Assembly (NCBI GenBank): GCA_041671645.1
Contig: JBAZBD010000002.1
Coordinates: 1-44,459 of the forward strand
Source: Patescibacteria group bacterium
GTDB lineage: Bacteria > Patescibacteriota > UBA1384 > XYA2-FULL-43-10 > 1-14-0-10-43-13
Length of the DNA: 44,459 nt
Direction: 5' to 3'
Every line of letters begins with the position of its first letter. Position 1 is the first letter of the stretch. Positions 25,740 through 32,704 of this stretch are shown here, one piece after another. Both the position numbers and the translations under genes were made by a program. The notes beneath the pieces were generated by a model. The model made no database searches. It worked only from the letters and a program-made list of their open reading frames with translations, and was not told where the DNA came from.

Positions 25740-27149
25740 TCATCTATGGATATAAACTGGTGTGCCTATCTCGGTCCAGTTGAAGACCTGTTCTGCCTCA
25801 CCGATACCCAGGCGGACACAGCCATGGGAGACTGGGATACCGAGGTGATCCTGGCCTTCTTTGTACCCGTTGGGCCATTCGGGCAGTTCATGCAAGCCGT
25901 ATACACCGTCTTTGAATTCTTGCCAGAAAGGCATCCAAAGACCGTATGTGTTTGACCAGCGCTTTGGATCTTTGCTACCGATATGAAATGTGCCTTCTGG
26001 TGTAGGCATCGAAGCTTTGCCGGAGGAAATGGTGTGGCAAGAGACGACAGTGTTTGTCTCAATCTGACAAAGCTTTTGAGTTGAGAGATTGACATCAACA
26101 TATTTTCCCTCAAACTTTCCTGGGATGATTCCCTCGGCAGGGTAAATTTTGACCTCTGCTGGATCCTGAGTGGTAACGGCCATCGCGACTATAGCCTTAT
26201 TGTTGATCAATTGATTTTTTAAATCGGTCACCGCCTGATCCTTGTTTAGAGTAATGCCCGCCTTTCCTTCCCGTATTACACCGCCAGAGAGTGCATCAAC
26301 TTGCTTGTCGACTTTTTTGACTTCAAAATTACCTGCGATATTGATGAGATAGGCTTTCACATTGCTTTCGTTGAGTCGAACTTTGTATGCGCCGTTGTCT
26401 GAGTAAAATTCAAGCCAATGGCCGATTTGAGTTTTGGTCGGAGAGTATGAAAGGTCGTTATAGGTGAAGGTAATCGTTTTGGCTAAATATGCTTCAGCAC
26501 TACTTTTCGCGGCCGAGTAATCAAGAGTAGAAATTGTTGGGCTAGCAGGGACAGTCTCGAGCACAATGTCAGGAGCTTGCGCAAGGGCGTTTGTGATAAG
26601 GACATCTTTCAATGTGTCTATCTTCACTTTTTGGCCATTTGCGCTCTCGACGAGTTTGATCTCACCATTTTCGACTTTAATCGAGGCGTCAACCGGGTCA
26701 GAATTTAGCTGGTTGATACTAACCTCGACAAATTTCTGGAATTTGACATCATCGACATAAGGCACCCCAGAGATTTTGTAAGGGGAGTAGACAACCTTGA
26801 CTGAACGAAAAAGGTTGCGGACAAAATTACCCTCTCTCCCGACCTGATATCCTTGCCTCGCAATTTCTATAAAGTCGAGGCTAAGGCCGGTGTCGAGATA
26901 AGTTGCCTTGATCTCTTTGGTATTGGCGACGAACTTGATTTCCTGATTTGTGATCTTGCTAAAGTTGCTCTTTAGGATTACCTCAGCTTGTTTTCTGGTC
27001 TTACCAGACAAATTGATCTCTCCGAAGAAAACATTTGGGTAAATCCGCTCTGCGTAGGCCCGCTGATAGAAAAATAGAGATGCACTAGCGGCCAACAAAA
27101 CGCCTAAGACGACTAGCGCAGAAATGAGCAATTTTTTTCTTGAGTCCAT
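25740..27149 (-). CDS. L,D-transpeptidase (YkuD domain) with N-terminal membrane anchor and long extracytoplasmic region
   Basis: The C-terminal catalytic motif is GIPVSHGCVRL, preceded by GLHELPEWPNG. The N-terminal TM is LLISALVVLGVLLAASASLFF. Confidence 0.9.
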   Translation of the reverse strand: MDSRKKLLISALVVLGVLLAASASLFFYQRAYAERIYPNVFFGEINLSGKTRKQAEVILKSNFSKITNQEIKFVANTKEIKATYLDTGLSLDFIEIARQGYQVGREGNFVRNLFRSVKVVYSPYKISGVPYVDDVKFQKFVEVSINQLNSDPVDASIKVENGEIKLVESANGQKVKIDTLKDVLITNALAQAPDIVLETVPASPTISTLDYSAAKSSAEAYLAKTITFTYNDLSYSPTKTQIGHWLEFYSDNGAYKVRLNESNVKAYLINIAGNFEVKKVDKQVDALSGGVIREGKAGITLNKDQAVTDLKNQLINNKAIVAMAVTTQDPAEVKIYPAEGIIPGKFEGKYVDVNLSTQKLCQIETNTVVSCHTISSGKASMPTPEGTFHIGSKDPKRWSNTYGLWMPFWQEFKDGVYGLHELPEWPNGYKEGQDHLGIPVSHGCVRLGIGEAEQVFNWTEIGTPVYIHR

Positions 27150-27240
27150 TGTAAAATAGTTGTTACTTATAATGTATTAATTATACTGATCTTTCAACGA
27201 TCTAGCAACATGGAATGGGGAATTATTGTAGATGTTAAAC

Positions 27241-27272
27241 AAAAAAGGTCATGCCTCTGCATGATCTTTTTT
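27241..27272 (-). terminator. Rho-independent terminator directly after the tRNA 3' end
   Basis: On the minus strand the stem is GATCATGC / GCATGACC (plus coordinates 27247-27266) followed by TTTTTT (27241-27246). Confidence 0.7.
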
Positions 27273-27316: not shown

Positions 27317-27513
27317 CGTGCCAACACGGCTTTCGCCGCCTCTTTCGAGTTTATGGTTTGGACTGTCCCTTTACCCTTTTTGAGGGTATCTGCCGTCCAG
27401 TCTCTACACCTTCCTCCCGAGTTATCGGAAGGCTTGGCTCGGGATTGCCATCGGTTAAGAAGGTTTCCCCGAATTTGACAGATTATCACCCACCAGTTTC
27501 CCGATGGGCAGCC
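27317..27513 (-). ncRNA. Group I (IC3, Azoarcus-like) ribozyme core
   Basis: The minus strand reads GGCUG-CCCAUCGGGAAACUGGUGGG-UGAUAAUCUGUCAAAUUCGGGGAAACC...AUGGCAAUCCCGAGCCAAGCCUUCCGAUAACUCGGGAGGAAGGUGUAGAGACUGGACGGCAGAUA... This parallels the Azoarcus intron strings GUCAAAUUCGGCGAAACC, UAUGGCAACGCCGAGCCAAGC and GAAGGUGUAGAGACUAGACGGCA. The IGS GGCUG (27513-27509) pairs with exon CGGCU, placing a U-G pair at the splice site. Confidence 0.8.
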
Positions 27514-27924
27514 CCTTTAAAAATATGCGTATCCAATGTATAATTCGGTTATGAACGAAATCACTAACTGCATAGTTTGCAAAAAACTGCTGAAGGGCAG
27601 ACAAACAAAATTCTGTTCTGCCATTTGCAAAAGTAAACTATTACAGAGCTATCCGTCGCAAAAGAAGCGTGGCCTTGCCCGAAAGCTTGATTTGATCAAA
27701 GCATTTGGGGGGCGTTGTTCTATTTGCGGTTATAGCCGAAATCTGGCCGTCCTAACATTCCATCATTCTCAATTTGAAAAAAGATTCAAATTAGATATGA
27801 GATCACTTTCGAACAGAAAACTGTCCGAAGTACTATCCGAAGCCAAGAAATGTATACTAGTCTGCCAGAATTGTCATGCTGAATTGCACAACCCAACATT
27901 GGATTTAGCTAATTTATTAAATGA
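27317..27924 (-). mobile_element. Group I intron (608 nt) inserted between U33 and C34 of the tRNA
   Basis: The 5' exon ends in U and the intron ends in G (complement of c27317). The 197-nt ribozyme core lies at the 3' side. A ~410-nt insertion in the P1 loop carries the HNH gene on the opposite strand. Confidence 0.8.
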
Positions 27925-27946
27925 AGCCGACTGCTCTAACCACTGA
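27551..27946 (+). CDS. HNH homing-endonuclease-like protein, encoded antisense to the intron
   Basis: The N-terminal Zn-finger is CIVCKK...FCSAICKS. The HNH core is CSICGYSRNLAVLTFHH...KCILVCQNCHAELH. An alternative ATG lies at 27536. The last 22 nt run antisense through the tRNA 5' exon. Confidence 0.8.
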   Translation: MNEITNCIVCKKLLKGRQTKFCSAICKSKLLQSYPSQKKRGLARKLDLIKAFGGRCSICGYSRNLAVLTFHHSQFEKRFKLDMRSLSNRKLSEVLSEAKKCILVCQNCHAELHNPTLDLANLLNEADCSNH

Positions 27947-28012
27947 GCTACAAGCCCATAAATTCTAGCTGCTGCTCTTCTCAAGAGCCGTACTCAATAT
28001 ATCAATCAATAC

Positions 28013-28034
28013 TCCCTTTTACAAGGGATTTTTT
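28013..28034 (+). terminator. Plus-strand terminator downstream of the HNH gene
   Basis: TCCCTT (28013-28018), TTAC, AAGGGA (28023-28028), then TTTTTT. Confidence 0.5.
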
Positions 28035-28145: not shown

Positions 28146-28697
28146 ATGAGTATGAAAAAATCACACCAAAAATTTAAGTACATCCTTCCGACAATTGTCT
28201 TGACACTTGCCGTTTTTCCGCAGTTTGTCTTTGCTTCTGACATTACTTCGCAAAATGTTTTACTTTTAGTGAACAAGGAGAGAATAGATAGGGGCCTTAT
28301 TCCACTCAGAGAAAATCAAAATCTTGCAAATGCCGCCGCTGCAAAATCGACTGATATGATCAATCGAAATTATTTTGATCACTACGCCTTCGGCCTCACG
28401 CCTTGGGATTTTATACTGTCGTATGATTACAATTACCTGTCGGCCGGTGAGAATCTGGCCATGGACTTCGAAACATCAGAAGGTGTTGTCAACGCTTGGA
28501 TGAAATCTTCTTCCCACAGAGCCAATATCCTAAACCCTGATTTCCAAGACCTTGGCGTCGGCGTAGTCAAAGGCGCATATATTACCGAAACGGGGTCTCA
28601 TGAGACCAAAATGGTGACCCAAATGTTTGGTCGCCACAAGTCAGTAATTGTACAAGCCTTCGATGACATTGTCTCGGCTTTCCAAAATATATTCTAA
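28146..28697 (+). CDS. Secreted CAP/SCP/PR1-like (YkwD-type) domain protein
   Basis: It has a signal peptide. Motifs are NKERIDRGLIPL, YFDHY, GENLA and AWMKSSSHRANILNPDFQDLGVGV. Confidence 0.85.
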   Translation: MSMKKSHQKFKYILPTIVLTLAVFPQFVFASDITSQNVLLLVNKERIDRGLIPLRENQNLANAAAAKSTDMINRNYFDHYAFGLTPWDFILSYDYNYLSAGENLAMDFETSEGVVNAWMKSSSHRANILNPDFQDLGVGVVKGAYITETGSHETKMVTQMFGRHKSVIVQAFDDIVSAFQNIF

Positions 28698-32472: not shown

Positions 32473-32549
32473 TGCGGGGTGGAGCAGCCTGGTAGCTCGC
32501 ATGGCTCATAACCATGAGGTCGTTGGTTCAAATCCAACCCCCGCTACCA
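32473..32549 (+). tRNA. Initiator-type tRNA-fMet (CAU), CCA encoded
   Basis: UGCGGGGUGGAGCAGCCUGGUAGCUCGCAUGGCUCAUAACCAUGAGGUCGUUGGUUCAAAUCCAACCCCCGCUACCA is nearly collinear with E. coli tRNA-fMet. The 1:72 pair is U-U and unpaired, an initiator hallmark. Only two of the three G-C pairs in the anticodon stem are present. Confidence 0.85.
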
Positions 32550-32627: not shown

Positions 32628-32704
32628 GGCAGGGTAGCTCAGTTGGTTAGAGCACAGGACTCATAAGCCTGGGGTCGAGAGTTCAAATCTCTCCCCTGCT
32701 ACCA
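32628..32704 (+). tRNA. Elongator tRNA-Met (CAU), CCA encoded
   Basis: GGCAGGGUAGCUCAGUUGGUUAGAGCACAGGACUCAUAAGCCUGGGGUCGAGAGUUCAAAUCUCUCCCCUGCUACCA has D-arm, variable-loop and T-arm strings like E. coli elongator Met. The 1:72 position is paired (G-U). Confidence 0.85.

Follow-up and report, generated by a model that had tools for sequence, protein, structure and literature searches.

Among the closest described systems, the group I intron of Azoarcus lies in the anticodon loop of a tRNA-Ile(CAU) gene, after position 36, and combines a compact core and a P1 extension helix within 205 nucleotides (nt), with a 40-nt 3′ exon and no open reading frame (ORF) (PMC13168695). The intron of the tRNA-fMet gene of Synechocystis PCC 6803 likewise occupies the anticodon loop of a tRNA(CAU) gene on a bacterial chromosome, is 655 nt long and encodes I-Ssp6803I, a PD-(D/E)XK nuclease. 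Its ORF is reportedly co-oriented with the intron. Here we describe an element from a Patescibacteria group bacterium (assembly GCA_041671645.1, contig JBAZBD010000002.1, positions 1 to 44,459; this whole stretch of 44,459 nt is called the window) in which a group I intron splits a tRNA-Ile2(CAU) gene on the minus strand and the loop of its P1 helix is filled by a gene for an HNH endonuclease on the plus strand. We consider it probable, from comparative analysis of sequences, that this is a mobile intron carrying a self-promoted, antisense and leaderless HNH homing-endonuclease cassette in its P1 loop.

A compilation of 2007 placed HNH genes in phage introns only and listed I-Ssp6803I as the sole endonuclease of a tRNA intron (PMC1995217), and the known phage HNH enzymes are small and often nick rather than cut DNA (PMC3428280). 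The phage intron endonucleases I-HmuI, I-TwoI, I-BasI, I-TslI and I-PfoP3I, and the free-standing T3 gene 5.3 and cyanophage psbA endonucleases, which target intron insertion sites, belong to the same HNH family as the window protein, and with them, as in our family, intron-borne and free-standing homologs aimed at one conserved site coexist; they differ in residing in phage protein-coding genes and in sharing at most 42% identity with the window protein. The model for such coexistence reportedly goes back to Bonocora and Shub (2009) and Zeng et al. (2009). The intron-borne ORFs among these phage enzymes are reportedly co-oriented with their intron. Homing endonuclease genes antisense to their intron are documented in nuclear ribosomal DNA (rDNA) group I introns, for example Didymium iridis Dir.S956-2, where an endonuclease gene in a peripheral loop lies opposite the ribozyme and is expressed from the antisense strand (PMC3679873). 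Such introns are eukaryotic and nucleolar, whereas the window element is bacterial, sits in a tRNA gene, encodes an HNH protein behind a predicted sigma-70 promoter and, unlike Dir.S956-2, has promoter DNA that doubles as one strand of the P1 extension. The endonucleases of these rDNA introns are of the His-Cys box type, with eukaryotic signals for their expression. The words antisense, opposite and orientation are absent from a 2014 review of bacterial group I introns, and our searches of open-access papers and preprints turned up neither this family nor any antisense endonuclease gene in a bacterial group I intron. An antisense HNH gene with its own leaderless promoter, whose promoter and last codons form the P1 extension, is a combination that we did not find in the literature searched.

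The split tRNA gene and its intron

The features of the locus are listed below in window coordinates, each with its basis in brackets.

27957-27925, minus strand: 5′ exon of tRNA-Ile2(CAU), tRNA positions 1-33, ending in U33, GGGCUUG...GUCGGCU (sequence)
27924-27317, minus strand: group I intron, 608 nt, between U33 and C34, with omega G at 27317 (Rfam RF00028 and comparison of loci)
27316-27274, minus strand: 3′ exon, 43 nt, tRNA positions 34-76 with CCA encoded, CAUAACCGAU...CCCACCA (sequence)
27336-27508, minus strand: ribozyme core, P2 to P9 (Rfam alignment)
27509-27513, minus strand: internal guide sequence (IGS), GGCUG (pairing with exon CGGCU, 27929-27925)
27551-27946, plus strand: HNH endonuclease gene, 131 amino acids, zinc ribbon plus HNH (ORF list, profiles, family alignment)
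27516-27521 and 27539-27544, plus strand: promoter of the HNH gene, -35 TTTAAA and -10 TATAAT with a 17-nt spacer (pattern scan and family logo)
27887-27924, minus strand: 5′ strand of the P1 extension, helices P1a, P1b and P1c (covariation and explicit structure test)
27514-27553, minus strand: 3′ strand of the P1 extension (covariation and explicit structure test)
28013-28034, plus strand: terminator-like hairpin with a T run, 3′ of the HNH gene (pattern match only)
27996-28024, minus strand: promoter-like site of the tRNA gene, TTGTAA, 17-nt spacer, TATATT, with TG before the -10 (pattern match only)
27240-27264, minus strand: terminator-like hairpin with a T run past the tRNA 3′ end (pattern match only)

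Joining the two exons yielded a sequence that folds into a canonical 76-nt cloverleaf with anticodon CAT, and whose closest match in E. coli, 81.6% identical along all 76 nt, is a CAT-anticodon gene annotated as tRNA-Ile. ARAGORN, when run on the window, missed this split gene and called two unsplit CAU tRNAs, which lie 79 nt apart on the plus strand at 32473-32549 and 32628-32704. Because the spliced product matches E. coli tRNA-Ile(CAT) and the two unsplit tRNAs are Met-like, we assign the split gene to the lysidine-dependent tRNA-Ile2, for which it is the sole candidate within the window. The tRNA at 32473 has a 1:72 mismatch and is initiator-like, and that at 32628 resembles elongator tRNA-Met; counting the split gene, the window carries all three CAU tRNAs.

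Evidence for the intron came from the Rfam group I model RF00028, which matched the minus strand at 27336-27532 with 62.9 bits, above its gathering score of 50 (E 9.4e-14); among relatives the score was 63.5 bits for L001, 68.8 for L002 and only 40.4 for L004. The 3′ junction reads G|CATAA in every related locus, with G27317 preceding CATAACC in the window, and the 3′ exons of all intron-borne loci start with CATAAC, mostly as CATAACCG. Since the 5′ exon side of L004-like relatives is without a CAT, the anticodon must be supplied by the 3′ exon, which places the splice between U33 and C34. From the 5′ splice site (27925|27924) to the IGS (27513-27509) there are some 410 nt, and nearly all of these are taken up by the HNH ORF.

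Compared with the Azoarcus intron, with which it shares the tRNA-Ile(CAU) host, the anticodon loop, the compact core and the P1 extension helix, the window intron sits at 33|34, is followed by a 43-nt 3′ exon and reaches 608 nt through the antisense HNH cassette in its L1 loop, such that none of the Azoarcus-type traits (insertion after 36, 40-nt 3′ exon, no ORF) is found. The core motifs of the two introns (GUCAAAUUCGG.GAAACC, GAGCCAAGC, AAGGUGUAGAGACU) appear to be alike. The I-Ssp6803I type is set apart by its initiator Met host and its PD-(D/E)XK nuclease, whereas the window host matches tRNA-Ile(CAT) and the window nuclease is of the HNH type. Flanking the window locus are an L,D-transpeptidase gene (25740-27149, minus strand) and a CAP-domain gene (28146-28697, plus strand).

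The HNH gene, its promoter and the P1 extension

The plus-strand ORF spans 27536-27946, and alignment with 30 homologs places the family start at its second ATG, 27551; the in-frame ATG at 27536 sits within the promoter and is not the family start. Across the 31 aligned sequences the zinc-ribbon residues C12, C15, C27 and C31 are invariant, as is the HNH core C61-x2-C64, H76, H77, N93, C110-x2-C113, H114 and H118. Five HNH-endonuclease families among the PHROG profiles matched at E ≤1e-5 (best 3e-16), and the closest phage proteins (≤42% identical) are annotated as HNH endonucleases. An AlphaFold model of the protein has a mean predicted local distance difference test score of 85.8, and its top ten Foldseek matches in the PDB are all HNH-type nucleases (Cap5, Gme HNH, T4 endonuclease VII, McrA), at scores short of significance. 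In a library of 1.84 billion proteins the best-scoring representatives (P0121-P0128) are 250-360 amino acids long, with 2-4 tandem zinc-ribbon plus HNH modules.

Selection on the protein is visible in the family of ORFs, where entropy at codon positions 1, 2 and 3 is 0.85, 0.61 and 1.54 and the median ratio of nonsynonymous to synonymous substitution rates (dN/dS) is 0.107, taken from the 35 pairs that are unsaturated at synonymous sites, most homolog pairs being saturated. An earlier note on this DNA had named decay of the ORF in close relatives that keep the intron as something that would refute its reading; we found the frame intact in 86 of 88 sequences and split only in L075 and L077. By these measures the HNH ORF is a real coding gene under purifying selection, and a chance ORF is ruled out by the coding pattern taken together with the recurrence of the same arrangement in dozens of independent genomes.

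A TATAAT at 27539-27544 precedes the ATG by 6 nt, with TTTAAA 17 nt farther upstream. When 72 distinct loci were anchored on the ATG, T-12 was conserved in 65, A-11 in 68 and T-7 in 66, while positions -13, -10, -6 and -5 carried only 0.02-0.34 bits, and a -35-like hexamer (at least 4 of 6 matches) lay 16-18 nt upstream in 46 of the 72. Conservation at a fixed 6 nt from the ATG implies a sigma-70 -10 box with the A of ATG at the expected +1, and thus a predicted leaderless mRNA, as the earlier note had proposed from the window alone. At the other end of the gene, 30 of about 75 distinct loci have a TAA or TGA stop codon whose last base is exactly the complement of U33, giving an exon overlap of a single nucleotide. 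The window has GAA at that place (27923-27925) and runs on for seven more codons to a TGA at 27944-27946, the last 22 nt (27925-27946) being antisense to tRNA positions 12-33; ORFs of other lineages extend 15 to 101 nt past the canonical stop. The 22-nt overlap to which the earlier note drew attention is real, then, but is a lineage-specific read-through tail and not a design feature.

Because the predicted promoters of the HNH and tRNA genes oppose each other, transcription would be convergent, and interference between the two transcripts is plausible. One could take this further and suppose that the plus-strand unit is mainly regulatory, its transcript or its transcription modulating tRNA-Ile2 maturation by antisense pairing or interference, with the protein secondary. 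The opposed promoters would suit such a role, as would a plus transcript fully complementary to about 400 nt of the pre-tRNA and a terminator-like hairpin, already pointed out in the earlier note and present here as a hairpin with a T run (28013-28034), that overlaps the -35 of the tRNA promoter-like site (28024-27996), both of these being pattern matches. We nonetheless regard it as very unlikely, given the strong signal at the protein level, the variation concentrated at third codon positions and the invariant catalytic and zinc ligands; in addition, the ORF-less introns and free-standing copies described below indicate that the tRNA gene and the protein can each work outside an antisense arrangement.

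The placement of the HNH gene in the P1 loop was evaluated in an alignment (A2) of 56 sequences, each made by joining the first 52 nt of the loop to its last 56 nt. In the window, CGGCU (27929-27925) pairs with GGCUG (27513-27509) to form P1, with the wobble U27925.G27513 at the splice site; the U.G pair is present in 56/56 sequences, and P1 is paired in 98% of cells. RNAalifold on the joined ends recovered only P1 and an adjacent helix, P1a, which is rich in compensatory changes. To test P1b and P1c, P1 and three extension helices were specified together as one structure, which proved to be paired in 87.1% of cells, against 76.2% after shuffling and at most 47% in slid registers, and which holds 207 compensatory cells where 89 were expected, a count that none of 500 shuffles reached. 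G.U pairs are frequent in the extension, which shows that it is selected on the intron (minus-strand) RNA. This covariation in P1 and its extension supports the position and strand that the earlier note had given the HNH gene, in the P1 loop opposite the ribozyme, just as the PHROG matches and invariant residues support its identity.

The same DNA serves the protein gene on the other strand. The 5′ strand of the extension is the antisense of the last ~14 HNH codons (His-Asn-Pro ... Leu-Leu-stop), and the 3′ strand runs antisense to the -35 box, the spacer and GGTTATG. Pairing does not account for the conservation of the -10 box, which falls in an internal loop of the extension. In the innermost helix, P1c, GGGUURUG pairs with CAUAACC; it is paired in 92% of cells with little covariation, since coding or the start codon constrains each of its strands as well, and its pairing with the antisense of the His-Asn-Pro codons explains why a GTT upstream of the ATG is conserved in 61-66 of 72 loci.

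The heptamer CATAACC, or a near-copy of it, occurs three times in the locus: at the start of the 3′ exon (27316-27310, minus strand), as the antisense of GGTTATG at the HNH start (27553-27547, minus strand) and in the His-Asn-Pro codons (27887-27894, plus strand), where the copy reads CACAACCC in the window and CATAACCC in most relatives and pairs with the HNH-start copy in the intron RNA. Chance, an insertion footprint and an operator-like mimic of the homing site are candidate sources of this likeness to the exon half-site. We also considered whether the internal CAUAAC beside the ATG is an anticodon-stem mimic that tracks its own 3′ exon, and rejected this, as it does so over no more than 6-7 nt. 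ORF-less introns are without the internal copy.

With these results in hand, a spurious antisense ORF, or a tRNA pseudogene with an unrelated HNH insertion and no functional intron, appears hardly credible. Such a view could point to ARAGORN missing the split tRNA and to a Pfam match below the HNH threshold, but it would have to set aside a coding signature with hundreds of homologs, a group I match above the Rfam gathering score, covariation of P1 and its extension in 56 sequences, and exons that join into a canonical tRNA which is the sole Ile2 candidate within the window.

Distribution of the layout and states of the cassette

A protein search returned 357 HNH homologs at 60-89% identity, and a scan of one genome per species revealed a relative in at least 562 species. 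The best 80 of these at least 562 species belong to Chloroflexota (mostly Anaerolineae), many Patescibacteria lineages, Armatimonadota, Latescibacteria, Krumholzibacteriia and a few Gammaproteobacteria. From a comparison set of about 140 related loci, 87 fetched loci were scanned for the intron core with nhmmer, and the core and 3′ exon lay on the strand opposite the ORF in 85 of them; about 75 of the best 80 have an opposite-strand intron core ending a few nucleotides before the ATG. By these counts the antisense layout is the norm within this HNH/intron family. The earlier note had called such arrangements exceptional, which agrees with the searched literature, where only nuclear rDNA introns have them, but does not hold inside the family. 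The protein tree mostly follows phylum with several cross-phylum placements, and free-standing gammaproteobacterial copies branch outside all others. One locus, L013, has a second, partial intron core (540-666) about 850 nt from the HNH start, and the core directly adjoining its ORF (1273-1508) scores weakly. In Chloroflexota loci a tRNA-Gly(UCC) gene stands directly upstream of tRNA-Ile2 (L004, 3455-3526, minus strand; L085, 1946-2017, plus strand).

As the earlier note had suggested surveying, the intron exists both with and without the ORF. A pattern scan of metagenomes, built on the 5′ exon followed by a short loop, the guide sequence and P3/P4, revealed 59 ORF-less introns at the same site, 191-307 nt long and with loops of 4-28 nt; some of the longer loops (that of L135, for example) retain the first extension helix. 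The closest comparison is between the ORF-less L104 and the ORF-bearing L028, which are identical at 196 of 197 core positions (99.5%) and lie in syntenic flanks of 94% and 90% identity. Here L028 carries a clean 405-nt segment, comprising promoter and ORF, in place of two nucleotides of L104, and the TGA that serves as its stop codon pre-exists at the ORF-less junction of L104; on this comparison the cassette has recently been gained or lost between the two introns. In two Patescibacteria loci (L075, 710-1105; L077, 1498-1914) the HNH frame is split in two and the intron is retained, and these are probably decaying copies.

Free-standing forms complete this range of states. In the gammaproteobacterial loci L080, L081, L083 and L086 a homolog stands just outside the tRNA-Ile(CAU) gene and diverges from it, and that tRNA gene holds a different intron, at 36|37 with a 40-nt 3′ exon, which is the Azoarcus position. 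L084 has a homolog between two tRNA genes, and in L085 (Chloroflexota) a free-standing HNH gene is found upstream of two tRNA genes, a tRNA-Gly and a tRNA-Ile2 whose intron has no ORF. With its intron core and ORF on one strand, L085 had been considered as a sense-oriented intron ORF; this was rejected, the locus being a free-standing gene plus a separate ORF-less intron. More distant phage homologs are also found in or beside tRNA genes, among them an unannotated homolog of 34% identity in the KVP40-like tRNA cluster of Vibrio phage VH1_2019 (MN794232.1; L148, 1201-1533) and one of 42% identity about 220 nt downstream of a tRNA in a huge uncultured phage (LR756504.1; L149). The L148 homolog has the same orientation as the tRNAs and extends into a tRNA-Asn at its annotated start. 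Every form of the gene is associated with tRNA-Ile(CAU) genes, which suggests the DNA of the tRNA-Ile2 anticodon loop as the target of the HNH enzyme.

How the element may work and persist

The sequences themselves establish the anatomy of the locus, the constraint on coding, the conserved promoter, the RNA pairing and the polymorphic presence of the cassette. Transcription, splicing, cleavage specificity and homing, as we infer them, would proceed as follows. A compact HNH cassette, made up of a sigma-70 promoter, a leaderless zinc-ribbon/HNH ORF and a stop codon borrowed from the intron-exon junction, would have entered the terminal loop of an extended P1 hairpin in antisense. On the minus strand the pre-tRNA would be transcribed through the cassette, and the ends of the insert pair in it to form a P1 extension of about 20 extra base pairs, which would bring the 5′ splice site beside the guide sequence some 410 nt off and allow the ribozyme to splice out a normal tRNA. 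On the plus strand RNA polymerase would start at the A of the ATG and produce a leaderless mRNA that crosses the tRNA 5′ exon and then the tRNA promoter in antisense before it reaches the terminator. The enzyme would probably nick or cut tRNA-Ile2 genes that are without the intron or the cassette, near the anticodon-loop DNA, and the occupied allele would then serve as the template for repair, so that the cassette or the whole intron is copied in. The antisense orientation may uncouple expression of the nuclease from the strong promoter of the tRNA gene and leave the ribozyme precursor free of ribosomes, at the cost of convergent transcription.

An ORF that is optional, and that sits in a peripheral loop outside the catalytic core, fits a mobile group I intron with a homing endonuclease. 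That free-standing, intron-borne, decayed and absent states all occur agrees with the life cycle known for homing-endonuclease genes, and would also fit a secondary joining of introns and endonucleases aimed at the same conserved site.

Several results weigh against this reading. Searches for the HNH domain itself gave a single Pfam match, AI2M-like_HNH, at E 0.047 and 14 bits against a cut-off of 23, and no relevant HNH match among NCBIfam profiles; the hidden Markov model check put forward in the earlier note thus came out divided, with support from PHROG and no significant match in these two collections. A sequence search of the PDB with the HNH protein returned nothing significant, and the Foldseek matches are non-significant as well (E 0.2-1.6, template modelling scores ≤0.4). 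No intron-less tRNA-Ile2 allele was retrieved from a close relative, which leaves the homing target a predicted one, and the terminator and tRNA promoter of the window are predicted from pattern matches only. The main point that purely selfish homing leaves unexplained is the intactness of the ORF: synonymous saturation in most pairs and a protein tree that largely follows phyla indicate that the gene has been kept intact for a long time, which such homing does not readily predict.

It is possible, on such evidence, that homing is no longer the role, or the main role, of the HNH protein and that the protein is retained for a benefit to the intron or the host, either as an addiction module that cuts genome copies in which loss of the intron or the cassette has restored the target site or as a helper in splicing or tRNA processing. 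This is the chief rival in its addiction and retention form, and we judge it unlikely. An ORF intact in 86 of 88 sequences, a dN/dS of about 0.1 and saturated synonymous sites bespeak long-term purifying selection, the grouping of proteins mostly by phylum suggests long vertical persistence, and the target gene is essential; moreover, bacterial chromosomes probably offer fewer chances for classical homing than do phage co-infections or genetic crosses of eukaryotic microbes. Yet the cassette is polymorphic between near-identical introns, and this, together with decayed and ORF-less copies and cross-phylum placements, fits ongoing gain and loss. Regarding a helper role, the ORF-less introns of the family presumably do not need the protein for splicing, and we know of no HNH protein that acts as a group I intron maturase.

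A further reading, which we put forward tentatively and hold to be less probable than not by some way, sees the zinc-ribbon plus HNH cassette as an autonomous mobile unit specialised on tRNA-Ile2 anticodon-loop DNA, whatever intron resides there. Where the gene is free-standing beside the tRNA gene, the resident intron would protect the target; where it lies in a P1 loop, its promoter and C-terminal codons would have been shaped into an RNA helix that the ribozyme needs. Head-on transcription against the strong tRNA promoter would throttle the nuclease, and so might the protein itself, by binding the CATAACC copy at the start of the HNH gene, a mimic of the exon half-site. A nuclease held back in this manner would explain the long persistence of an intact gene within an essential single-copy gene across several phyla.

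The locus joins two things that are each classical, group I introns in bacterial tRNA genes and intron-borne homing endonucleases, in a combination absent from the literature that we searched. For annotation, it means that carriers can seem to lack the essential tRNA-Ile2, since standard tRNA finders (ARAGORN here) miss the split gene, and that the HNH ORF is usually recorded as 'hypothetical' or as a 'Zn-ribbon protein'. A single DNA segment is placed under triple constraint, as protein, promoter and RNA helix, and the family may offer a small, possibly nicking enzyme with a defined conserved target. Its free-standing genes, ORF-less introns, invaded introns and decayed ORFs form a natural series for testing how endonucleases and introns become associated, and, should the cassette be an autonomous unit, one target would preserve in nature every step of the route that has been proposed for the union of introns with endonucleases.

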